IMG/VR virus record: IMGVR_UViG_2896607866_000013
DNA: 46,788 bases
Origin: a virus
Taxonomy: Duplodnaviria; Heunggongvirae; Uroviricota; Caudoviricetes
Reading direction: 5' to 3' (one strand)
The notes under the pieces are model-generated. The model did not search any database and was not told the DNA's origin. It saw nothing but the letters and a program-made list of their open reading frames with translations. A program made the position numbers and the translations under genes. Positions 586 through 38,117 of this stretch are shown piece by piece (position 1 is the first letter of the stretch; each line of letters starts with the position of its first letter).

Positions 586-3377
586 TATGCAAGCCTCACA
601 ATATAGTTAAATGCGATGTTTTTGACGGTGTTTTCCGCGTTACCAGCAGCGTTAACGGTGATGGTGTGTCCATGTGAACCAATCGCAACGGAGTGCGCAT
701 GAGCACCAATTGGAACAGAGTGCGCATGGTTACCTGTAGTGCTTGTGGCACCAGACCAGGTTCTGGAAGCGTTAAAGTTTACAGGAACACCATAAGTAAA
801 TTGAGAGCCCGTAAATCCATGGGCTGGCGCAGAGCCACCCAGTGTAAATGCTCCACTTGCTGTATAGAAATTACCGCTATCACTTCTGAAGTAACCGAGA
901 GTACCAGTAATTTCCATAGTGCCTCGGCTGTGGTTATGGTCACCAGTGGCATTTGAAGACTTAGTACCATAATCAAACGACGACGTGGTTTTCGTCCCCA
1001 AATCCGTACTGGATGCACTGGCGCTGTGGGTGTGCGATTTAATGCCGTCCTGTTCCTGAGATAATACGGCTCGACCACTGGCAGGTTTGCCCTTAATCGT
1101 CCAGCCACGCATATCAGGGATCACGCCTGACGGATAAGCAGCTGCAAGTTTCGGGTAAGCAGATTTGTCAAAAGTCTGCCCCTGCATCAGGGCATAACCA
1201 GACGGAACGGTATCTGATGGCCACGGGATTGGTGCGCCGACTGGGTAGCTTTCTGGTGGAAGATTTTTCGAGGTATAAACTTCTGCCCAGTCTTCCTCAA
1301 AACCATAACCGTCTCTTGAAGAACGGTAGAACAGACCACCATTTCTGTAATGCGCCTTCATCTGCAAGGTCCGGCAACTTCCGACTCCGGTATAGAAGTT
1401 AACCAGAATATAGCTGTCGCCAGAGCGGGTGACATTGTAAGCGCCTGATTCGGCATTCCAGGGAACGGCTCCATCCGAATCCGCATAAGCCCCCGTCGAA
1501 CGTCGGGCAAATGCACCAATATTTTCCGGCGTGAGGTTAATATCCGCCGAGCCATCAAACTTAACACCGTTAATTTTTGGGTCTGCCGCAAGTTTCGTCG
1601 CGGTATCGGCGTTCCCCTTCAGTGCCCCGGTGATCCCATCAGTAACAGACAACGGACCTGAAATAGTCCCTCCAGTTGTTGGCAGCGCTCCAATATCTGA
1701 TGGTGTAGGTTTCTGATGTGAGCTATACATCGTATAAACAACACCATCGGTAACGCTGGAAGGCTTACTCGCTGAATATGTTAGCGAGGTATAAATAGAA
1801 ACTGACGCATTTGTAGTACAATCCCAATGGATATTTACACTCGTCGCATAATTGCCAATCTCAACGTAAATATCATATATATCGCCGGATGTGTTGATCC
1901 AGGCGAAATTCGTTAATCCGACGGCTGTACGCTTCCACAAAGCTCCGGTAATCCCTTTGGAGTTTCCATTGCCTGCTCGTAGAACCAGTTCAGATATACC
2001 TGCCTGTTGAGGTGCCCCCACGTTAAATCCAGCGCCACCAATCAATGCGATGTAAACGATGGAACTCGCTTGTGGCATGGTAACCGTTGCCAGTTTGAAC
2101 CACCCTGCCCCGCCAGAGAAAGAGATCGTTACTGAATTTAAAGTGCCAATATCTTTCGGTGTTAATGTTATATCCGCAGTCAGTGCTTTCCCGTTAACTT
2201 TTCGGTTAGATGGTACCCTGCCATTCGCATTGTCATTCGCTGCTTTAACTGCCTTCGGTGTCGCGGCAAGCGTTTCAGATGTGCTGTTGGTTGCACTGCT
2301 GAGCTGTACTATCCCCTTTTTCGTCGTGCTCGCATCCTCAAGCGCCACGGCGGATGCAATATCCTCTGCCCGTTTTGCCGCTGTCTCGGCGCGCGTTGCC
2401 GCGGATTCCGCCGTACTTTTGCTCTGAGCTGCCGCCGTCGCACTGCCAGCTGCCTCTGTCGCCTTCGTGGATGCCGTCGTGGCGCTGCCCTTTGCTGCTG
2501 ACGCCTGTCTGGTCGCCTCATCTTTTGAAGCAGACGCAGATGATGCCGATGACGCCGCCGAACTGGCGGACGATGCGGCAGCCGTTTTTGAGGATTCTGC
2601 GCTGGTTTCCGAGGCTTTCGCGTTCGTTTCGGATGTCTTCGCTGCCTCTTTTGAGGCCGCCGCATCCCGTGCTGAAGTGGCTGCTTCTGACGCTTTCGTG
2701 GTCGCGGTGGATGCAGAAGTGGCTGCTGATTGTTGTGACGCTGCCGCATTCGTTTCTGACGTTTTCGCCGCACCGGCACTGGTAGCCGCCGCGCTTTTTG
2801 AGGACTCTGCAGCGGCAGCACTTTTTGATGCTTCAGTAGCCTTTGTTGATGCCGTTCCTGCGCTGGAAGACGCTGACTGAGCCGACGTCGCGGCCTGCCC
2901 GGCTGATGTGCTGGCTGCACGTGCTGAGCCTGCAGCATCAGTCGCATGGGTTGCCGCCTCACTGGCAGATATGCTGGCATCGCTGGCTGACTTCTTCGCG
3001 GCTGCCGTGTTCTGTGCCACCGCGGACGCGTTACGCGCCACCTCTTCCACCATCAGTTCAAAACGGCGCAGTGCCTCAGGACGGGCATCATCCTCCGTCA
3101 TGGCACCGAGAAAATCATTCAGCGTACCGGGTCGGGAATCTTCATACACGGTGATGGTCCCGGCATGTGAAGGCGGAAAACCTTCAACCAGCAGGGTGAC
3201 GCTGTACTGACCATGCTCAACATCCATGCTGTAACGTCCGGCTTCATCCGGATTTTCAGAGGCCACCGTGTTCACCACCACCGTGCTGCTGGTCCGTCTG
3301 GCTTTCAGTTGAATGGTGCAGTTCTCTACCGGTTTTCCTGTGCCGTCTTTCAGCACACCTGAAATCTTTACTGCCAT
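585..3377 (-). CDS. stf: Side tail fiber protein (lambda Stf-like)
   Basis: ORF 585-3383; ATG at 3377 gives [17 protein letters not shown]... like lambda Stf, preceded by GGGGTG SD; long Ala/Ser/Thr-rich low-complexity shaft; C-terminal HxH repeats. Confidence 0.85.
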
Positions 3378-3388
3378 ATTCACCCCAC

Positions 3389-3414
3389 AAAAAAGCCCGC
3401 CTGAACCGGCGGGC
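3389..3414 (-). terminator. Intrinsic terminator downstream of lom
   Basis: GC hairpin AGCCCGCC/GGCGGGCT followed by U-run on - strand transcript. Confidence 0.5.
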
Positions 3415-3441
3415 TGTCATAACACTGTGTTACCTGGCTAA

Positions 3442-4133: not shown

Positions 4134-7100
4134 TCAGCTGATACTGATCCCTGCTGTGGATTTTTTCATGACCACAACCAGTAAATCACTGATGTACGTT
4201 GTCGGCGTCCAGTTGTTCGCACCGGCCGACGACACATTAAACGTCAGGGTGACATGACCCCGCCCTGCCGGCATATCTATCACCGATGAGAACACCCGGC
4301 TGACATCCGTTGCCGGTTCATGGAAAATCTCAACCCCGTTCTTCAGCACCTGCAGCTTACAGGTGGAATACCAGTACGACTGCTGATTCGGGCTGTTGAA
4401 ATTCTGGTGTTTCGTCCCGCGAAACAGCACCGGGGGAATGATAATCTGCCGGTCGAAGCCCTGGTCATCGTAAACTGTGACGGTTACCGTACCGCTGGCA
4501 TAACTGTTATTCCGGGGAAAGGCTTTCCCCACCGTCTTCACCAGGTCGCCTTCAATCTGGTTTGCAGACAGTTTCCCTCTGATGACACAGTTCTCGTTAA
4601 TGGTGACATTATTGAGCGTGCCGGTATTCGCGGTAATTGCTCCGCTGATATCCGCGTTCCTGGCTGTCAGCTTCCCTTCCGGCGTCAGGGAAAACGTCGG
4701 GGGGTTGCCGGATGACGTGATACTCGCCGCAAACAGACGCTTCAGGAACACGTCGTTCATGAACAGCTGATTCCCCTGCGCCACAAATAACGGAGTGCTG
4801 TTGCCGCTCTCCGGATTTATCATCGCGATACGGTCAGCCAGCAGCAGTATGTTGCTCAGTGGCTGGCCATCAGTATCCTCAATCCCTGCACCAATCCCGG
4901 CCACATAGGGAATGCCGTCTTTCGTTTTTTGAACCTTCAGCATGTACAGCGCAGTCAGGTCATCATTTGTGTCCTTCTGCACGCGCTGTATCTGCTGTAT
5001 GGTGGCGCTCTGGTCCTCCAGCGTTTTACTGACCGTCTGTGTGATTTCATTGCGGGTTTCGGTGATGGTGGTCTTCATCTCCGCCATCTCATCCGCAAGC
5101 TGGCTGTTGTCTATCAGCTCCCACAGCCCCTGAGCCAGATGCAGTTTTCCTATTTTTTCCCGGAAAAATTCCAGATACCCTTCACCATCATTGCTGGGCT
5201 GCCCGCTGACTTCCACAAACGCAGATTTCCCCACCAGGTTGACGCTGCGCACGTAAAACCAGAAATCCTTCCCGGGCTTAATGTGCGGGCCGGATACACT
5301 CCACTGACTGCCGGTCCCCAGATAACGGGCAGAGGTTTCCACCTGTGCGGCGTCTGCAATTTTTGCCTCCGAAAACCAGAACTCAAACTGCACCGTCGGG
5401 TCATAAATGGTCAGTTTCGGGACTGCCGTTATCTGAAAATACCCCGGCGTCAGTTCAACACCGGCAGGCGCTGCCGGTGCGTTAATCCGGAACGTGGTGG
5501 TGGCGGGTTCGCCCTGCTGGCCATAGCTGTTAATCGCCCTGACCGTCAGGGTGTATTCCCCGAGAGGCAGGCCACTGAAACGGTGCTCCGTATCGGCAGT
5601 GATGGCGGTGGTCAGCAGGCGGCTGTTCTCACCGCTTCCACTGGTCAGGCGCAGACTGAAGCGCACGCCCTTCACCACCCTCGGCGTGTCCCATTTCGCC
5701 TGTGCCAGATACTGACCGTCAGCCGCGCTCACCTCCACCGTCAGGTGCTGCACTGCCGGTGGAATAACGCTGTTCAGGGTGCCTGACTGCGGCTCAAAGC
5801 TGGCCCCGTTATCCACGATGGCTTCTTTTTCCGGTACGTGCTGCACCGCCGTGATGGCAAAGGTGCCGTCCGTGTTTTCCCGGATGGAGACACAGCGGAA
5901 CAGGCGACGACGCAGTGACGGCAGGGAGAGTCCCCATACACCGTATGTCTCCACACCATCAGGCAGGGTGCTGACCTGTATCCGGTCCGGCGCGGGGTGT
6001 GCAGTGATGTCCACACTCACCGGCTTACCGCTGCCGTTAATCAGGTTCACCGTGGCGGCACCTGTCTCCGGCAGGGTCACCTCACGGTCCAGTGTCAGGG
6101 TGCGGCTGGCGGCATCGATGTACAGGACACGTCCGCCGGTCATGGTCCCGGCATAGTCATTATCACAGATTTCAATAATGTCACCGGGTGTGTGACGCAG
6201 CCCCTGTGACCCGAGCGTGAAATCCACCGTCTGCGTTTCCAGCAGTCCGGTCTTTATCACCCACAGCCCGGCACGGTGGGCCTGACCGCGACTGGTGCAG
6301 CCGAACGCATCCATCTTCAGCAGGTTGCGCCCGTAGCGCAGTATGGCTTCCGGGTCTTCCACCAGTTCCGTGGAGGTCTGCCAGCCGTTCTGCGGGTCGG
6401 TGTAATTCACCTCCACCGCCGTGTGCCGGTCCTTCAGGGCACTGAAGCTGTAGCGGAACCCCACGCCGTTATCATCCACCACCACATCGCTGCTGGTGTA
6501 CGGCCACACCACATCCGACGGGCGGTCCTGAACAAACGTCAGCGTCTGACCGTTCCATACCGGCATACAGCGCATCGCAGAGCAGAAATCACTGAGAACG
6601 TCCCACGCCTTACGCTGTTGTGACAGGTACGCATTAAAGGTCATCCGCGGCTCTGTGCCCCCGAAACCATCCGGGACCGTCTGGTCGCAGTACTGCCCGA
6701 TGGCATACAGCGCCCACTTGTCAACATCCGCCGCCCCCAGACGTTTTCCCATGCCGTAGCGCGGGTGAGTCAGCATGTCCCACAGGCACCAGGCCGGGTT
6801 GTTGCTGTATGCCGGCTTCAGGCTGCCGTCCCAGATACCGCTGTAAGTGCGTTTTTCCGGGTCATAGTTTGACGGTACCTGAATGATGCGACCTCGGATA
6901 TGGTAGTTCACCGTCATCTGCTGACCGCCAAACTGCTCCGCATCCACCTGCAGCCCCACAATCGCCTTGTTCGGGTAGCACTGTTTCACATCGATGATTT
7001 CGGTGTATGACGACCACAGCGTTCTGTTCTGCAGCTGGTCCGTGGTGCTGTCCGCCGTCTCCCGGACCATCCGGATGTTAAAAGGACGGGGAGGCAGATT

Positions 7101-25034: not shown

Positions 25035-25066
25035 ACCCCGTCTCCCGTTATCCGGAAGCTGACAAC

Positions 25067-25100
25067 AATAAAAAAAGCCACCAGTTAAGTACTGATGGCT
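25067..25100 (-). terminator. Intrinsic terminator between nanS-p-like gene and holin
   Basis: AGCCACCAG-loop-CTGATGGCT followed by U-run on - strand. Confidence 0.45.
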
Positions 25101-25184
25101 CTGATAACTCATGCAGGCGTCTCAGACGACCCACTGACACTACCGGTGAGTTTAACGATACCTTCCATTTGACTGGCTCACTTT

Positions 25185-27038
25185 TTATGATGATGCCGGT
25201 GCATTTATCTCCAGCACCAGACTTTCTATCTCAACGCCATACGCTGCATTTTTTGTAACATCCGTCAGCGTCAACGCATTCAGTCCCAGTGTCAGACTGT
25301 CTTTTATGACCTGGAATGCCGGGCCAGCCACTCCATTCAGTTTCGGAGTAACCGTGGCACTGCCGGCGGTGAACACCAGCTCCAGCGTCTGCCAGTCGTT
25401 ACTGTAATTCCCGAACTCGCCCAACTTTGTGTTTCCGGCTTTCTTGTGATGCATCAGATTCAGTTTGCCGTCTGTGGTCTGGGTGAAGAACGACATCAGG
25501 AACGGGTTACCAGTCCCGGTCATCGCCACGACGTCAGGTAACGCTACATCGGTATACAGATAAATTCCCAGACCGAACTGGTTGTTGGTCAGTGCGCCTG
25601 ACAGTCGAAACTTACAGCTCAGTCTGCCACCCCGTGTCAGCAGGGAGACTGCGTCATCCACCGGATGCATCAGGGACCAGGTTTTATTGCTCTGCTTGGC
25701 GATCTTAAATACACCACCCGACAACTGAATTCCGCCGTCCTTAATGGTCCAGCCCTGCGCAGCAGCCTCTCCGGCTGTCGGCAGCAGGGAGATTGTGCGT
25801 ACGGATGCATCTTCAGGCGGCCCCGATGGCGTGTCGCCGCCGGGCGAGGGTTTGATTTCCGGTGCCTTACCACTGATGAAGGCTGAGGTGCGCCCGGCTG
25901 CGTTCAGAATAGCGGTTGCCATACGATCCGGAATAATGCTCCTGCGCGCCCATGAACTGAAATGTGTCGGGCGGTTTGATGATACCTGGTTTCCATTCGT
26001 TCTCGATGCCGCACCGTAATATCCTGATGCCGGAATATCCGGATCTTCTGCCGGCGCGTTAGTGGCGGTATTGACGCCGTTACCGTCTGTCATGAAGGGC
26101 ACAAAATAAACGCCCTCACTCTCCCTGTTTTTGTACGCCCCGTAAATGGTGTTGTACTGCGTGCCGTAGGTGTTTTTCCAGTAATACGTCGTGTCACCAC
26201 AAATCCACGGCACATTTACAGCACTGCCACCATGACACTGCGCGTTAAACACAGTGAGGTCAGCACGAAACTGCTTCAGCATGGCTGTAAACAGCGCAGG
26301 TTGCTGTGCGTAGGTGGCGGCGCTCATGTCAAACTCTCCCTGCATCCAGCACACCGCCAGCAACACATTTTTCGGGTTCTTCTGTAATGCAGCTTTAGTG
26401 CGCGCAATCAGGTCCTGATATAACGGTTTACCCACACCCCAGCGCGCCGAATCCTGGCTGGCCCCCGCGTCCGCACTGAATGTCCCCTCCGCGCCCTGGG
26501 TGAATGCCGAACCACCACGACAGCATGGTACCAGCAGGATCCCCGCGTTATTCGGGATATACGGGAGCAGTTTTTTGGCAATATGTAAGCCCTGGCCGAC
26601 ACAGCCGTACTGCCCTTTGCTCAGGTCTGCCTTCGGATGATTCAGCGTACTCATATCCTGCACATCATGCAGACAGTGGTCAGCCGGGATGATGTCGTTA
26701 TACGTACAACTCTCTCCACCCGGAGTTACCGTGCTGCGGCGCGCCAGCTGTTTAATGCGCGGATCCGGAGCATCGTAAGAATCCGGTAACGGAAGCCCTT
26801 CACCGTAGGCCATGCCGTTGGACTGTCCGGCAAGCACAACCACGTAGAACCAGTCCGGCTCAGATGAAGGGCCGACCTGTGGATCTCCTTCAATAGCCAC
26901 CGCCTGCATCAGTGTGTACGGCGTAATGGCAACCGGTCCGCCATATGGCTGCCAGCCCTCTTTCAGTTTGTGTGTCAGCTTTTCCGCAAGGTCTGACGGC
27001 GACGCCGCCCTGACAACATCATAGTGTTTAAATGCCAT
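25185..27038 (-). CDS. Prophage sialate O-acetylesterase (NanS-p-like, SGNH/DUF303 hydrolase)
   Basis: 617 aa; GQSNG catalytic-Ser motif near N-terminus; same position (downstream of Q-tRNA region, upstream of lysis genes) as the large esterase ORF of Stx phages. Confidence 0.7.
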   Translation of the reverse strand: MAFKHYDVVRAASPSDLAEKLTHKLKEGWQPYGGPVAITPYTLMQAVAIEGDPQVGPSSEPDWFYVVVLAGQSNGMAYGEGLPLPDSYDAPDPRIKQLARRSTVTPGGESCTYNDIIPADHCLHDVQDMSTLNHPKADLSKGQYGCVGQGLHIAKKLLPYIPNNAGILLVPCCRGGSAFTQGAEGTFSADAGASQDSARWGVGKPLYQDLIARTKAALQKNPKNVLLAVCWMQGEFDMSAATYAQQPALFTAMLKQFRADLTVFNAQCHGGSAVNVPWICGDTTYYWKNTYGTQYNTIYGAYKNRESEGVYFVPFMTDGNGVNTATNAPAEDPDIPASGYYGAASRTNGNQVSSNRPTHFSSWARRSIIPDRMATAILNAAGRTSAFISGKAPEIKPSPGGDTPSGPPEDASVRTISLLPTAGEAAAQGWTIKDGGIQLSGGVFKIAKQSNKTWSLMHPVDDAVSLLTRGGRLSCKFRLSGALTNNQFGLGIYLYTDVALPDVVAMTGTGNPFLMSFFTQTTDGKLNLMHHKKAGNTKLGEFGNYSNDWQTLELVFTAGSATVTPKLNGVAGPAFQVIKDSLTLGLNALTLTDVTKNAAYGVEIESLVLEINAPASS

Positions 27039-27232
27039 GAATCCTCCCGGCCGGGATAATATTGTGAGTAAAATGAGGAGCGGGCTGAAGTCCGGAAGTT
27101 ACAGGACAATGGCAGAAGAGAGACAACAGCCCGCAATACGAAAAAGGCCGCGCTATTGCGCAGAGTGATTACTGTCGGATATTATTCGCCAGCTGAAATA
27201 TTACTTCACGTTTTGTTGTTTATTCCTTGCCG

Positions 27233-27260
27233 CCCGCGTCTCCCAGCGCGGGCTTTTTTT
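27233..27260 (+). terminator. + strand terminator-like hairpin in the tRNA/nanS-p spacer
   Basis: CCCGCG-loop-CGCGGG followed by CTTTTTTT on + strand. Confidence 0.4.
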
Positions 27261-27487
27261 GTCCATAAGAAAGCCCCTCCGGAGAGGGGCTGGAGAGTGG
27301 CGCTATGTGCCATTGCATGGTGCCGGGTGCCTCCCGGTGAATTCAGTACCAGCACCTGAATCCGCGATTATCCCATATACCTACTCGCTGATTGCCCCTC
27401 CGCACAGGGGGATTCACCATGCCAGTTTCTTTTAACAAACTCCCCGCAAAACAGACAACTGTCAACCGTCTGAATTGTGAGACATTT

Positions 27488-27512
27488 AAAAAAAGGCCCG
27501 CAAAAGCGAGCC
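27488..27512 (-). terminator. Intrinsic terminator downstream of tRNA cluster
   Basis: GGCUCGC-UUUU-GCGGGCC hairpin followed by UUUUUUU on - strand. Confidence 0.5.
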
Positions 27513-27526
27513 GGGAAAAATAAGTC

Positions 27527-27603
27527 TGGCGCGTTGTACTGGATTCGAACCAGTGACCGATTGCTTAGAAGGCAATTGCTCTGTCCGGCTGAGCTAACAA
27601 CGC
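27527..27603 (-). tRNA. argO: tRNA-Arg (anticodon UCU)
   Basis: 77 nt; 7-bp acceptor stem GCGTTGT/ACAACGC, anticodon loop CTTCTAA, TTCGAAT T-loop, CCA end. Confidence 0.85.
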
Positions 27604-27616
27604 AGGGTACAGATAA

Positions 27617-27693
27617 TGGACCGCCATCGAGGACTCGAACCCCGCGCAACCAGCTTCGAAGGCTGGCGCTCTATCCCGATGAGCTAATGGCGG
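27617..27693 (-). tRNA. argN: tRNA-Arg (anticodon UCG)
   Basis: 77 nt; acceptor CCGCCAT/ATGGCGG, anticodon loop CTTCGAA, TTCGAGT T-loop, CCA end. Confidence 0.75.
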
Positions 27694-27702
27694 TATGTGA
27701 TA

Positions 27703-27778
27703 TGGTGGCCCTTGCTGGATTTGAACCAGCGACCTGGCGATTATGAGTCGCTCGCTCTCACCACTGAGCTAAAGGGCC
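27703..27778 (-). tRNA. ileZ: tRNA with CAU anticodon (Ile2/ileX-like, or Met)
   Basis: 76 nt GGCCCTTTAGCTCAGTGG...ACTCATAATCG...GGGCCACCA; close to recalled E. coli ileX; ileZ-argN-argO order as in Stx-type phages. Confidence 0.8.
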
Positions 27779-27827
27779 GCGCGCAGAATAATAACGTTAC
27801 GGAATTAATACTGCAATCTCATCCGTT

Positions 27828-28877
27828 TCAAACGATTAAATCCTGAACTTCCCTGACTGTCTGCTCAAAACGTCCGGTCTCCAGCTCAACACCAATCGCA
27901 CGACGCCCCAGTGCCATCGCCGCTTTTACCGTTGAACCCGACCCCATGAAAAAATCCGCAACCAGATCACCAGGACGACTACTTGCGCTGATTATCTGCT
28001 GCAGCATTTCTGCCGGTTTTTCGCACGGATGTTTCCCTGGATAGTACTGCACCGGTTTATACGTCCACACATCGGTGTACGGCACCTGCACCGTCACACC
28101 GAAATACCGCCGCAAATTTTTATATTCACTCAGCAGTTCCATATACTGCCGGTTCAGCTCACTGTATGTGCTGACCAGCTGGTGGTGTGGCTTTTCCAGT
28201 TCCCCGCGCTGATGTTTCTCTTCTGCCACCCGGGCAAACAGCGACTGTAATTTCAGATAATCGCTTTCGTTCGGTAGCTGCCACTGACTGGCACTGAACC
28301 AGTGCGGCACCATGTTTTTCTTTCCTGTGGCATCTGCAATCTGTTTTGCCGTTATCCCCAGGGCAGCGCGCGCATCACGAAAGTAAGCAATCAGCGGGGC
28401 CATCACATGCTGTTTCAGTGCCCTGCCCTTCGCCTCATACCCGGCATCTTTCGGACGATACGGCCCCTGATAATGTTCCGCGAACAGAATGCGCTCTGTG
28501 GCGGGGAAATACGCCCGCAGGCTTTCCTTGTTGCATCCGTTCCAGCGTCCGGACGGCTTCGCCCAGATAATATGGTTCAGCACACTGAAGCGTTCACGCA
28601 TCATGATTTCGATATCAGATGCCAGGCGATGACCACAGAACAGGTAAAGACTTCCGGCAGGTTTCAGCACCCGCCAGAACTGCGCCAGACACTGGTCCAG
28701 CCACTTCAGGTAATCATCGTCGCCCTTCCACTGGTTATCCCAGCCCTCAGGCTTCACTTTAAAGTACGGCGGGTCCGTGACTATCAGGTCAACAGAATTT
28801 TCGGGTAACGACCGGATAAATTCCAGGCAGTCGGCGTTGATTAACTCACAACTGGATATTTTTACAGTATTAGCCAT
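27828..28877 (-). CDS. Orphan DNA methyltransferase (N6-adenine/N4-cytosine, beta class)
   Basis: 349 aa; motif IV TDPPYF precedes motif I FFMGSGST; no adjacent restriction gene. Confidence 0.75.
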   Translation of the reverse strand: MANTVKISSCELINADCLEFIRSLPENSVDLIVTDPPYFKVKPEGWDNQWKGDDDYLKWLDQCLAQFWRVLKPAGSLYLFCGHRLASDIEIMMRERFSVLNHIIWAKPSGRWNGCNKESLRAYFPATERILFAEHYQGPYRPKDAGYEAKGRALKQHVMAPLIAYFRDARAALGITAKQIADATGKKNMVPHWFSASQWQLPNESDYLKLQSLFARVAEEKHQRGELEKPHHQLVSTYSELNRQYMELLSEYKNLRRYFGVTVQVPYTDVWTYKPVQYYPGKHPCEKPAEMLQQIISASSRPGDLVADFFMGSGSTVKAAMALGRRAIGVELETGRFEQTVREVQDLIV

Positions 28878-28971
28878 AGATCAATAAGCACTTCTCTGAT
28901 AGGCTCATACCGCTTTTGCGCAAAGCAGATGGGCCTGAGGTTTGCTTGTGACCCCAACGCATGAGCAGATG

Positions 28972-29000
28972 GCTGGTGGGTGCCCCTAACACCCACCAGC
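28972..29000. repeat. Perfect 11-bp inverted repeat (7-nt loop) upstream of the methylase gene
   Basis: GCTGGTGGGTG-CCCCTAA-CACCCACCAGC; no U-tract on either strand. Confidence 0.6.
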
Positions 29001-29011
29001 CGCCCATTTAC

Positions 29012-29042
29012 CACAAATAAAAAAGCCTTCACTGCGGAAGGC
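29012..29042 (-). terminator. Intrinsic terminator at the stop of the small post-Q ORF
   Basis: GCCUUC-CGCAGU-GAAGGC followed by UUUUUUAUUUG on - strand. Confidence 0.55.
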
Positions 29043-29226
29043 GTCTGTAACAACCGAACTGATAGTCTGCCAGACCCGCCATAACCAGCTGGGTCAGTAT
29101 TAACTGGCAGCGTTCGCGTGAAAGGTAAGTATTCTGCGCAATCTCCCCGACTGTCGCCGGTTCGGTGACGCTTAATTCATTAAACACCACTCTGGCGGTT
29201 TCTGTCATATCCTGCTGTTTCAGCAT
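29029..29226 (-). CDS. Hypothetical small protein (about 65 aa), first ORF after tR'
   Basis: ATG at 29226 with AAGGGA SD (MLKQQDMTETARVVFNELSVTEPATVGEIAQNTYLSRERCQLILTQL...); HTH-like by composition only. Confidence 0.45.
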   Translation of the reverse strand: MLKQQDMTETARVVFNELSVTEPATVGEIAQNTYLSRERCQLILTQLVMAGLADYQFGCYRRLPQ

Positions 29227-34107: not shown

Positions 34108-35276
<1,169 letters not shown>

Positions 35277-35345: not shown

Positions 35346-35552
35346 TCACTTAAACATTTTTCCGGAGCAAAAGGCTATAAGCGGCATACTGACGCGGTAA
35401 TTACGGCCCAGCGGTTCACAAATCACCTTCTGACATTCACGGTCAACCAGGCTAACACGTAGAACATGCCCTGCAGGTGTGGTGTACCACTGACCCGGAC
35501 GAGGACAACGGAAAGTCTGATTGGTAAACCGTTTGAAAATATTCCGGATCAT
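35346..35552 (-). pseudogene. Small gene sharing the MIRNIFK.FTN leader of the Rha array, 3' end split by IS911
   Basis: ORF stop codon TGA is the first 3 nt of the IS911 end; without the IS the frame continues 6 codons (..KMFKRLGGVA*). Confidence 0.5.
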
Positions 35553-36421
35553 TTACGCCCCCTTACCTCTGAAGGGTTCAGCGACAAATTTATGAGGCAG
35601 GCCAGTGCCGAAGCATCATTAATATAGTCATACAAGCTAACAGCCAGCGGAGATTCGGCTTTTGCCAACATAGGATAAAGCTGCTGCAGCCAGACCTGAT
35701 GAATTGATGAAATGTAGGAATAGAGAACGCTGGCGTTATGTGCAACATCGCTCAGTACAGAGGGATTTGAAAGCTGTTTCTCCATCTGGTTAAAGGCATT
35801 GATGTATGCCTCTTTGAACTGGGCAGCACGTTTACCCGTGAAGCCCATGGCAAGAAACGCAAAACCGTCGCGGGTGATTTGGTAACAAGGGAGTTTGCGG
35901 CCTGATGCGTCGGTGTATTCACTTAACACAAAATTGTGTTCAGTAAATTCAGCGGAACATTCGAGGTTTCTAATTCTATCTAAAACCCGCTCATGCCGTT
36001 TAGTAAAGTAATTAGCTACTGCAAGAGATGTGGTGACAACGCGACCATTGATAATCGTGATTTCAGGGTGAGATTGGGTTGGGAGAGTAGTCATGGTGAC
36101 AGCCCCTATGTTGAATTCAATGAACTCACCACCAAGGCTTTCCACGACCATATAGGTGGTGAGACGTACAGGGGTGGAAATACCGGTCAACATAGAACCC
36201 GGCCCAACCGAAGTTGGCCCTGCACGCCCCACCATAATTTGGGCGTAACGATGCTCATGACACGAAAAAACCGCATGAGCGCGGTTGTGCTCTATATTGA
36301 ATTTCGGGTTTCCACGCCCGGCACCCGCTTTATAAGGTGCCTGAACAGTGTAACGTCCCGGAATGGCAGAATCAATGTGCTGGTGGCGATTGGTAAACAG
36401 TTTGAAAATATTCCGGATCAT
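35549..36421 (-). CDS. Rha-family phage regulatory protein (copy 1 of tandem pair)
   Basis: 290 aa; C-terminal half has Rha signature VTTSLAVANYF.KRH..VL..IR.LE...GRKLPCYQITRDGFAFLAMGFTGKRAA.FKEAYINAFNQMEK. Confidence 0.65.
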   Translation of the reverse strand: MIRNIFKLFTNRHQHIDSAIPGRYTVQAPYKAGAGRGNPKFNIEHNRAHAVFSCHEHRYAQIMVGRAGPTSVGPGSMLTGISTPVRLTTYMVVESLGGEFIEFNIGAVTMTTLPTQSHPEITIINGRVVTTSLAVANYFTKRHERVLDRIRNLECSAEFTEHNFVLSEYTDASGRKLPCYQITRDGFAFLAMGFTGKRAAQFKEAYINAFNQMEKQLSNPSVLSDVAHNASVLYSYISSIHQVWLQQLYPMLAKAESPLAVSLYDYINDASALACLINLSLNPSEVRGRK

Positions 36422-37569
36422 TTACGCCCCCTTACCTCTGAAGGATTCAGCGACAAATTTATGAGGCAGGCCAGCGCCGAAGCATCATTAATATAGTCAT
36501 ACAAGCTAACAGCCAGCGGAGATTCGGCTTTTGCCAACATGGGATAAAGCTGCTGCAGCCAGACCTTGTGGATTACCGACAGGTGGGAGTAAAGCACGCT
36601 GGCGTTATCTGCGGCATCGCTCAGCGTGGATGGCTTTGAAAGCAGTTTTTCCATCTGGTTAAAGGCATTTATGTATGCCTCTTTGAACCGGGCAGCACGT
36701 TTACCAGTGAAGCCCATAGCAAGGAACGCGAAGCCATCGCGGGTGATTTGATAGCAAGGTAGTTTGCGGCCTGTGCAATCGGTGTAATCACTCACCGAAA
36801 AATTGCGGGCAGTGAATGATGCGGAGCATTCAAGCGTGCGGATCTTTTTCAGTACATCGTCATGACGTTTGGAGAAGAAGTTGGCAACAGCTAGGGATGA
36901 AGTAACAGCCTGACCATCAACGATGGCAATTTCAGGTTGAGTGAGGGTTGGGAGAGTAGTCATAGTGACAGCCCCGGTAGTCAGTTTTTTAGAAAACTCA
37001 CCACATGGGACGCCAATCACAGAGGTGGTGAGACGTACAGGGTTGGCGTTACCGGAGACTACCGAACCCGGCCCGACCGAAGTCGGCCCTGTACGCCCCA
37101 CCATAATTTGGGCGTAGCAATGCTCATGACACGAAAAAACCGCATGAGCGCGGTTATGCTCAGTAATCAATTTCAGGACGCCAATCCCGGCACCCGCTTT
37201 ATAAGGTGCCTGAACAGTGTAACGTCCCGGAATGGCAGAATCAATGTGCTGGTGGTCCTTCACACTCAACAAAATCACGCCTGAATTTCCACAAAGGACT
37301 AAAGCACTCATGCTGGTAGTCTTTGCGAAGATAGATAACGCGCTGTGTTTCTGGCTCCCAACGAATAACATGGACATAAAGCCCTCTTCCGTCACGAAAC
37401 CAGCGGTTAAGTTCCTGCACAACTCGCCCCCCACAGTCAGGTAAAGTTCTCTGTGGTTACTTACAGCCAGGTGATCTGGTAATCTGCATTCATGCCGTAA
37501 CAACAGGTGTTCAGCGACACTGACCACCAGCTGTTGCGACAAACGGTTATTTGCCGTTAAACTGTTCAT
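36418..37569 (-). CDS. Rha-family phage regulatory protein (copy 2, with unique ~93-aa N-terminal extension)
   Basis: 383 aa; C-terminal 290 aa paralogous to copy 1 (~870-bp tandem DNA repeat); ATG immediately after the CII-like stop. Confidence 0.6.
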   Translation of the reverse strand: MNSLTANNRLSQQLVVSVAEHLLLRHECRLPDHLAVSNHRELYLTVGGELCRNLTAGFVTEEGFMSMLFVGSQKHSALSIFAKTTSMSALVLCGNSGVILLSVKDHQHIDSAIPGRYTVQAPYKAGAGIGVLKLITEHNRAHAVFSCHEHCYAQIMVGRTGPTSVGPGSVVSGNANPVRLTTSVIGVPCGEFSKKLTTGAVTMTTLPTLTQPEIAIVDGQAVTSSLAVANFFSKRHDDVLKKIRTLECSASFTARNFSVSDYTDCTGRKLPCYQITRDGFAFLAMGFTGKRAARFKEAYINAFNQMEKLLSKPSTLSDAADNASVLYSHLSVIHKVWLQQLYPMLAKAESPLAVSLYDYINDASALACLINLSLNPSEVRGRK

Positions 37570-38117
37570 GCGTTAGTTTCTCCACAGACACAAAACGCCA
37601 CGACGCCCGGAGCTGCACACTCGCGGGCGTCACTCTTTTCTGGAGCGCAGAAGATTTTGTAGACCAGTGCTGCATGCTCCTGGAGCTTCGAAATTGACAG
37701 ATACAACTCATCATTAATTGCTGTCTGCTCGTGTGGCTCCACGACCCCATCTTCGATTGCCGAACGAATCTGCTTTGAGTAATTCCCGATCTGTTCGATG
37801 ACTTCCAGCAGGCGCTGGTTTATATCGGCGTTCTCTACTTCCTCAATTTCAGGAAGCGATACGAACACCCCACCAGCAGACTGTGCGACAGCATCCGCAA
37901 TGTAGTGAGTGCCAGCAGCACGCTGTAAAATCATTGCCCATCCCAGCGGGAAAATCTGATCGCCATCTGCACGAAGGCGGTTGAATAAAGCGTTCTCTGT
38001 TACATCCAGCCACTCAGCAGCTTCAGCGTAACCCCCCGGCAACGCCGCGATAGTTTTTCTGACAGCTTTCACGTACCACTCAGGCTGTTTTTCCACTTTC
38101 CAGTGATGATTACCCAC
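37566..38117 (-). CDS. CII-like regulatory protein (tentative)
   Basis: 183 aa directly downstream of cro; weak resemblance to recalled phage 186 CII-type proteins; family call is inference. Confidence 0.35.
   Translation of the reverse strand: MGNHHWKVEKQPEWYVKAVRKTIAALPGGYAEAAEWLDVTENALFNRLRADGDQIFPLGWAMILQRAAGTHYIADAVAQSAGGVFVSLPEIEEVENADINQRLLEVIEQIGNYSKQIRSAIEDGVVEPHEQTAINDELYLSISKLQEHAALVYKIFCAPEKSDARECAAPGVVAFCVCGETNA

Follow-up and report, generated by a model that had tools for sequence, protein, structure and literature searches.

Small RNA dyads located between PR'-proximal morons and a conserved ORF have been described in at least eight Sakai prophages (literature including Tree et al. 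2014). The closest of these systems is found in Sakai prophage Sp4, where ileZ1-argN1-argO1, 489 bp and the esterase ECs_1088 follow one another without stx, and where Hfq-CRAC peaks and northern bands were reported for EcOnc05 in the sense orientation and for EcOnc08 and EcOnc21 in the antisense orientation (Tree et al. 2014, PMC4104026). Table S2 of that study gives EcOnc42 of Sp15 as homologous to EcOnc08 and EcOnc21 (PMC4104026). AsxR and AgvB, which occupy the antisense position, are sponges of the core sRNAs FnrS and GcvB, and overexpression of EcOnc27/sRNA103 raises the transcript levels of fimZ and espA. In a recent preprint, the PasD sRNA of EPEC E2348/69 (PasD1/PasD2) is stated to be related to STnc100 (Zhu, Shabalina and Storz 2026, bioRxiv 10.64898/2026.05.13.724894), and by that description it may resemble the RNA described below.

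The locus compared here with these systems lies in a window of 46,788 nucleotides (the whole stretch of viral DNA that was analysed; IMG/VR record IMGVR_UViG_2896607866_000013, Caudoviricetes), in which 27039-27526 form the exact 488-bp gap between tRNA-Arg(TCT) and the ATG of an esterase gene. ARAGORN and Pfam place Q, a DNA methylase, three tRNAs, the gap, the esterase, a holin and a lysozyme in this order on the minus strand, with the following neighbourhood:

32055 to 31666, minus strand: RusA, followed by a KilA-N protein and a DUF968 protein, upstream of Q (Pfam)
29837 to 29442, minus strand: antiterminator Q (PF06530)
28877 to 27828, minus strand: N6_N4 DNA methylase, between Q and the tRNAs (Pfam)
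27703-27778, minus strand: tRNA-Met/Ile2(CAT) (ARAGORN and Rfam tRNA match)
27617-27693, minus strand: tRNA-Arg(TCG) (ARAGORN and Rfam tRNA match)
27527-27603, minus strand: tRNA-Arg(TCT) (ARAGORN and Rfam tRNA match)
27038 to 25185, minus strand: NanS-p-like esterase of 617 aa (DUF1737, SASA and DUF6645, Pfam)
downstream of the esterase, minus strand: P21-type holin, DUF1327 protein and lysozyme (Pfam)

The tRNA cluster as a whole (27527 to 27778, minus strand) is of the ileZ-argN-argO type, and its CAT member at 27703-27778 is a tRNA-Ile according to the PGAP annotation of near-identical genomes; the tRNAs are transcribed from a promoter of their own (Sy et al. 2020). Q is 49% identical to the Q of 933W and the esterase 53% identical to 933W L0105/NanS-p, and the NanS-p-type domain architecture of the product of 25185-27038 marks it as a putative sialate O-acetylesterase. 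The holin ORF as listed comprises 97 aa, the Pfam match beginning at residue 31, and is probably over-extended at its N-terminus; with a shorter start, about 150 bp would lie between the esterase stop and the holin start (25035-25184), a position at which the PasA/PasC sRNAs have been reported in related prophages.

Several observations were also made elsewhere in the window. An 869-bp tandem duplication, whose copies are 75-91% identical, occupies 35519-37255, and each copy harbors C4 antisense RNA and isrK matches (36152-36340 and 37021-37209, minus strand) inside the Ash/Rha-domain ORFs 35549 to 36421 and 36418 to 37569. The duplicated Ash/Rha region is followed by a CII (CP76) gene at 37566 to 38117 and adjoined by an IS3-family transposase ORF (rve, HTH_21) within the prophage (34108-34947, minus strand), while a full-length Rfam IS009 RNA match of 225 bits is situated at 44-242 on the minus strand.

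The window and Sp4 are 98.6% identical over 563 aligned columns, the corresponding gap of Sp4 lying at NC_002695.2 1179669-1180157. Like the window, Sp4 combines ileZ-argN-argO tRNAs, a gap of 488/489 bp and an esterase with the EcOnc05/EcOnc08-EcOnc21 dyad, and their differences amount to a few SNPs, one T-run indel and the gene upstream of the tRNAs, which encodes an AraC-family regulator in Sp4 and a DNA methylase here. The late region of 933W (Q-tRNAs-stx2AB-L0105-S-R) shares Q, the tRNAs, the STnc100 block, the esterase and the lysis order with the window, whereas the latter lacks stx2AB, carries the methylase between Q and the tRNAs, and has a converging sRNA of EcOnc08 type instead of AsxR. 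Homology to 933W (L004, the 933W record, 2970-3075) continues over the 3'-terminal ~100 bp of the methylase gene (27828-27929), which suggests that 933W keeps a remnant of such a gene between tR' and the tRNA promoter.

The initial annotation had recognized the architecture of Stx-converting phages in this order of Q, ileZ-argN-argO tRNAs, nanS-p esterase and lysis genes, which ARAGORN and Pfam bear out, with the addition of the methylase that it did not mention. It had further described the prophage as toxin-negative with retained tRNA and esterase cargo, and the tRNA and domain matches agree with this, as do the toxin searches that it proposed. Stx1A and Stx1B translated from VT1-Sakai, Stx2A and Stx2B from 933W, and both stx operons served as queries. 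Very permissive tblastn with the four proteins against the whole window and the interval returned only noise, and blastn searches with the two operons (word size 7) did no better, so that neither stx protein similarity nor stx DNA was found, and no stxA or stxB lies between Q/tRNAs and the esterase by either search. The best stx match in the whole window has E = 0.07 and falls outside the interval.

Alignment with 933W, likewise suggested at the outset, resolves where the toxin genes would sit. The segment 2970-3409 of L004 holds the tRNA promoter, the three tRNAs and a terminator annotated "upstream of the stx genes", and is 91.6% identical to window 27929-27489. The segment 4745-5287 begins 42 bp past the stx2B stop, extends into L0105, and is 74% identical to window 27484-26941. 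Between these two blocks 933W carries a 1335-bp stx2 cassette with the stx2 promoter and stx2AB (L004 3410-4744). In the window the blocks abut within about 5 nt, with an ambiguous overlap over about 5 nt at 27480-27489, and the stx2 cassette thus equals a point rather than an interval; no deletion scar is seen. The view of the whole gap as an stx-equivalent slot is accordingly not sustained, since the cassette maps to the point 27484-27489, although the gap is, as had been noted, about 490 bp long (488 bp) without a toxin-sized ORF (none exceeds 93 aa). As judged from these alignments, the unoccupied moron (stx) insertion point is at about 27480-27489, just after the tRNA terminator.

A six-way alignment of the window, Sp4, VT1-Sakai, a Stx2a phage, the stx-free phage PhiR5_1 and 933W revealed a conserved block that starts at TCACAATTCAG (about 27479), and the sequence 5' of this block varies with the occupant among the six loci, being a tRNA terminator, an stx2B flank, an stx1B flank or another small ORF. 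The remaining ~440 bp of the interval have homologous counterparts that lie 3' of stx2B in 933W and 3' of stx1B in VT1-Sakai. When a 131-bp query across the junction was searched against 5426 complete E. coli genomes, the stx-free junction was contiguous in 980 of them, among which strain ZH063 matches at 100% identity and an APEC strain is included; a 1-kb query had a similar outcome (988 genomes). Strains of pathotypes with which stx is not associated are among its carriers, and it is the usual stx-free junction in E. coli prophages. Partial matches, among the matches listed, end at 27489/27490, in keeping with the insertion point placed by the 933W alignment. A 5-bp direct repeat, ATCTG, flanks the 1335-bp 933W cassette (L004 about 3410-3416 and 4741-4747); it is too short to be told from chance.

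The gap is very probably a conserved regulatory-RNA module that lies upstream of nanS-p in lambdoid late regions with or without a toxin cassette. Its features, together with the positions to which the published Sp4 peaks map, are these:

27512 to 27488, minus strand: intrinsic terminator of the tRNA operon, stem 27512-27495 and T7 run 27494-27488 (terminator scan)
27451 to 27261, minus strand, sense to the late operon: STnc100-family sRNA of EcOnc05 type (Rfam RF02076)
about 27366-27394, minus strand: hypervariable segment of the STnc100 RNA, between the 5' hairpin and helix 3
27390 to 27282, minus strand, sense: EcOnc05 peak (northern ~222 nt; Table S2, PMC4104026)
27291-27272, minus strand: STnc100 terminator hairpin (terminator scan)
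27095 to 27260, plus strand: converging antisense RNA of EcOnc08/21/42 type (terminator scan, Sp4 identity and probe match)
27186-27258, plus strand, antisense: EcOnc08 peak (northern ~271 nt; Table S2, PMC4104026)
27095-27180, plus strand, antisense: EcOnc21 peak (northern ~271 nt; Table S2, PMC4104026)
stem 27232-27253 and T7 run 27254-27260, plus strand: terminator of the plus-strand RNA (terminator scan)
27156-27161 (TTGCGC), 18-nt spacer and 27180-27185 (TATTAT), plus strand: putative internal promoter (sequence reading)
27191-27260, plus strand: candidate short RNA of ~70 nt, predicted from the internal promoter to the terminator
27148 to 27163, minus (sense) strand: terminator-like hairpin, then CCTTTTTCG (terminator scan; kept in six of six aligned loci including 933W)
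27039 to 27147, minus strand: esterase 5' UTR, containing a strong ribosome-binding site (GGGAGGA, 27048-27042) and a long hairpin (sequence)

The minus-strand RNA at 27451 to 27261 is a member of STnc100 (RF02076), as is evident from its full-length score and from covariation. It matches model positions 1-206 of 206 with 139.2 bits, against a gathering score of 47. STnc100 RNAs are found at the equivalent place in 933W, where the RNA follows stx2B and scores 208 bits, and in VT1-Sakai, where it follows stx1B and scores 177 bits; a Stx2a phage, a stx-free phage and Shigella, E. albertii, E. ruysiae, Enterobacter and Leclercia prophages have the family there as well. The consensus derived from 15 homologs consists of five helices, whose 31 pairs are formed in 96.1% of cells, compared with 41-49% when the partners are slid. 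Compensatory changes occur in 13 pairs, as opposed to 5-9 in the slid controls and 6.5 +/- 1.5 in shuffles, a level reached by none of 500 shuffles, and helix 3 (GGAUUCAG/CUGAAUUC) contributes seven covarying pairs on its own. The hypervariable segment (27394-27366) of this variant is the shortest of the STnc100 set, which accounts for the 139 bits here relative to 208 for 933W. The counterpart in 933W/Sp5 (EcOnc27 or sRNA103, downstream of stx2B) has equal helices, strand and place upstream of nanS-p, the difference being that a tRNA terminator precedes the RNA here instead of stx2B.

No convincing sigma-70 promoter for STnc100 was detected 5' of the core, the scan giving none on the minus strand in the interval, and the conserved TTGACA at 27466-27461 was rejected as a -35 element since no acceptable -10 element lies at 16-18 nt. 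The northern size of EcOnc05, ~222 nt, exceeds the Rfam core of 191 nt. Among the homologs, two STnc100 copies at a short distance from each other were observed in prophages of E. albertii, Enterobacter quasiroggenkampii and E. sichuanensis (L010 4825-5482, L008 3418-3847 and L014 6775-7212). An 888-bp contig of Xanthomonas pisi DSM 18956 (L016) carries STnc100 at 207.7 bits and AsxR at 88.1 bits, the same scores as 933W, and is probably E. coli Stx2-phage contamination of that assembly.

The published northern probes connect the locus with the Sp4 experiments. The EcOnc05 probe is an exact copy of window plus-strand 27359-27393 and therefore detects a minus-strand RNA, while the EcOnc08/21/42 probe exactly equals window minus-strand 27186 to 27152 and therefore detects a plus-strand RNA. 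The published EcOnc coordinates refer to NC_002695.1, and calibration with AsxR against NC_002695.2 gave an offset of ~135 bp at Sp5 and Sp15 and none at Sp4. Placement of the peaks depends on this record-version calibration, whereas the two exact probe matches do not rely on it; once calibrated, EcOnc42 and EcOnc21 share a start at window 27095, in support of the mapping. Any reuse of the EcOnc tables on the current RefSeq record needs the ~135-bp correction at Sp5 and Sp15 (L007, L017 and L006). By analogy with the 98.6% identical Sp4 locus, both RNAs would be made and bound by Hfq in this prophage as well. Their genes lie on opposite strands and end at back-to-back terminators (27232-27260 for the plus-strand RNA, 27291-27272 for STnc100), downstream of Q and between PR'-proximal cargo and the downstream esterase ORF, which is the arrangement that defines a dyad in Tree et al. 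(2014).

The region of the plus-strand RNA is 94-100% conserved in Sp4, Sp15/VT1, O104:H4, PhiR5_1 and a Stx2a phage. A northern size of ~271 nt would put its 5' end near 26990, inside the esterase gene, where no candidate promoter for an RNA of this length was found. The sole plus-strand match of the promoter scan, ATGCCA-N17-GATAAT at 27032-27060, would yield about 194 nt, and the published size is larger than that of either promoter-predicted antisense RNA (~70 or ~194 nt). Position, orientation and convergence on STnc100 are shared with AsxR, AgvB and EcOnc03 (RF02703, RF02702), the terminator counterpart in 933W being the AsxR terminator (RF02703, 88 bits). The AsxR promoter of 933W, TTGCGC-N18-TAAAAT, also has its layout repeated here (TTGCGC-N18-TAnnAT), overlapping a conserved hairpin in the six-locus alignment. 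In contrast, the conserved ~42-nt 3' region of those anti-sRNAs is missing, and the published band of the EcOnc08 type, ~271 nt, differs from their 51-60 nt. Within 26900-27900, Rfam returned no match to AsxR, AgvB or Esr41 even at E <= 1, and the covariance models RF02703/RF02702 did not recognize the RNA, with 933W as the positive control yielding 88 bits for AsxR.

We regard it as unlikely, though conceivable, that the plus strand also makes a discrete ~70-nt Hfq-type sRNA at 27191-27260 from the AsxR-like promoter, and/or that the long form acts in cis on the esterase ribosome-binding site. The candidate coincides with the EcOnc08 Hfq peak and with the position of AsxR in 933W, and it is predicted to fold into an A/U-rich single-stranded 5' part and a strong terminator (z = -2.6). 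The published probe sits upstream of the 27191 start, so that only the long form has been seen. The single-stranded 5' part, ACGUUUUGUUGUUUAUUCC, shows no relation to AsxR, AgvB or EcOnc03, and this U/G-rich stretch resembles, as we presume, a GcvB-R1-type seed rather than a sponge for one. If real, the ~70-nt RNA would represent a further class at the anti-sRNA position, carried by stx-free and by some Stx1 and Stx2a phages.

The scan of 26800-29200 detected six terminator-like hairpins, four of them inside the gap, against a shuffled expectation of 2.7 +/- 1.7 over the whole 2.4 kb. With three on the minus and one on the plus strand, the hairpins earlier noticed on both strands are indeed present, whereas the statement that the gap holds only hairpins fails on account of the STnc100 sRNA and the converging RNA; they are the terminators of these two RNAs and of the tRNA operon. 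The tRNA-operon terminator (27488 to 27512; -14 kcal/mol, z = -2.25) has as its 933W homologue the feature labelled 'terminator upstream of the stx genes'. The sense-strand hairpin at 27148 to 27163 overlaps the -35 element of the putative antisense promoter, and the esterase 5' UTR beyond it (fold z = -2.7) is near-invariant among the six aligned loci.

The gap could be taken for an inert, empty stx slot that holds transcription terminators only, given its several terminator-like hairpins and the lack of any toxin-sized or Pfam-supported ORF. This reading is extremely unlikely, because the stx cassette corresponds to a point at the edge next to the tRNAs, Stx1 and Stx2 phages keep the interval 3' of stx, it contains a full-length Rfam sRNA supported by covariation, and a 98.6% identical locus yields two experimentally detected Hfq-bound RNAs. 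That the interval encodes small proteins, such as ORF 27392-27523 or ORF 27156-27359 (both plus strand), is almost certainly wrong. The longest ORFs that touch the gap (93, 67 and 58 aa) each begin with TTG. Hypothetical proteins have been annotated in the interval by PGAP and in some phage records. ORF 27392-27523 (43 aa, TTG start) runs antisense to the 5' end of STnc100 and matches phrog_27294, a family of unknown function, with E = 6e-17, yet the match spans profile positions 1-31 of 59 only and a 1-nt T-run indel breaks the ORF in Sp4 despite 98.6% overall identity. Nor does any of the six small gap ORFs have a Pfam match, a 1-nt indel in an A run falls inside the 67-aa ORF in Stx2a_KH16, PGAP's own call here is flagged as an incomplete pseudogene, and the covariation pattern fits an RNA on the strand opposite to the small ORFs. 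The phrog_27294 profile probably goes back to ORFs called across the sRNA gene.

How the junction came to be free of stx is a separate matter. Lambdoid late regions are mosaic, and the identities around the junction, 91.6% to 933W on the tRNA side, 74% on the esterase side and 98.4% to the Stx1 phage VT1-Sakai over 27039-27344, indicate exchange with Stx phages in the vicinity; no scar would be expected after replacement by homologous recombination. A former stx-carrying state with the interval as a deletion scar is nevertheless very unlikely, in view of the close abutment of the two 933W blocks, the failure of tblastn and blastn to detect stx-derived similarity in the window, and the identical junction in 980 of 5426 complete E. 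coli genomes, the APEC strain included. To an analysis of sequence, a clean swap by recombination in flanking conserved DNA looks the same as never having carried stx.

Read along the minus strand, the two-RNA module and its surroundings have the following order. The tRNA operon stops at its own intrinsic terminator (27512-27488), beyond which lies the moron insertion point (~27480-27489), vacant here and filled by the 1335-bp stx2AB cassette in 933W. A structured STnc100-family sRNA of EcOnc05 type, roughly 190-220 nt, would then be produced from 27451 to 27261, with the EcOnc08/21/42-type plus-strand RNA converging on it and ending at the terminator 27232-27260, back to back with that of STnc100; the sense-strand hairpin 27163-27148 and the esterase 5' UTR follow. 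In the lysogen, both sRNAs may serve as Hfq-dependent trans regulators, as their relatives AsxR, AgvB and EcOnc27/sRNA103 do, and the hypervariable STnc100 segment and the 5' part of the plus-strand RNA are candidate specificity regions. An antisense RNA of ~271 nt, reaching to about 26990, would cover the start codon and the ribosome-binding site of the esterase gene, and cis effects are possible. Upon induction, Q-modified polymerase would pass all sense-strand terminators, leading to expression of the esterase and lysis genes.

A publication of 2014 already described the dyad, where it lies and that it binds Hfq, work of 2021-2026 returned to the subject, and nothing here is biologically new. 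The comparison places the toxin cassette of Stx-type late regions as a point insertion beside the tRNA terminator, and identifies the "spacer" before nanS-p as a conserved two-sRNA module common to toxin-positive and toxin-negative prophages. In annotation, such gaps should be labelled as STnc100/EcOnc05 together with an EcOnc08/21/42 antisense RNA, instead of as empty or as a hypothetical protein.
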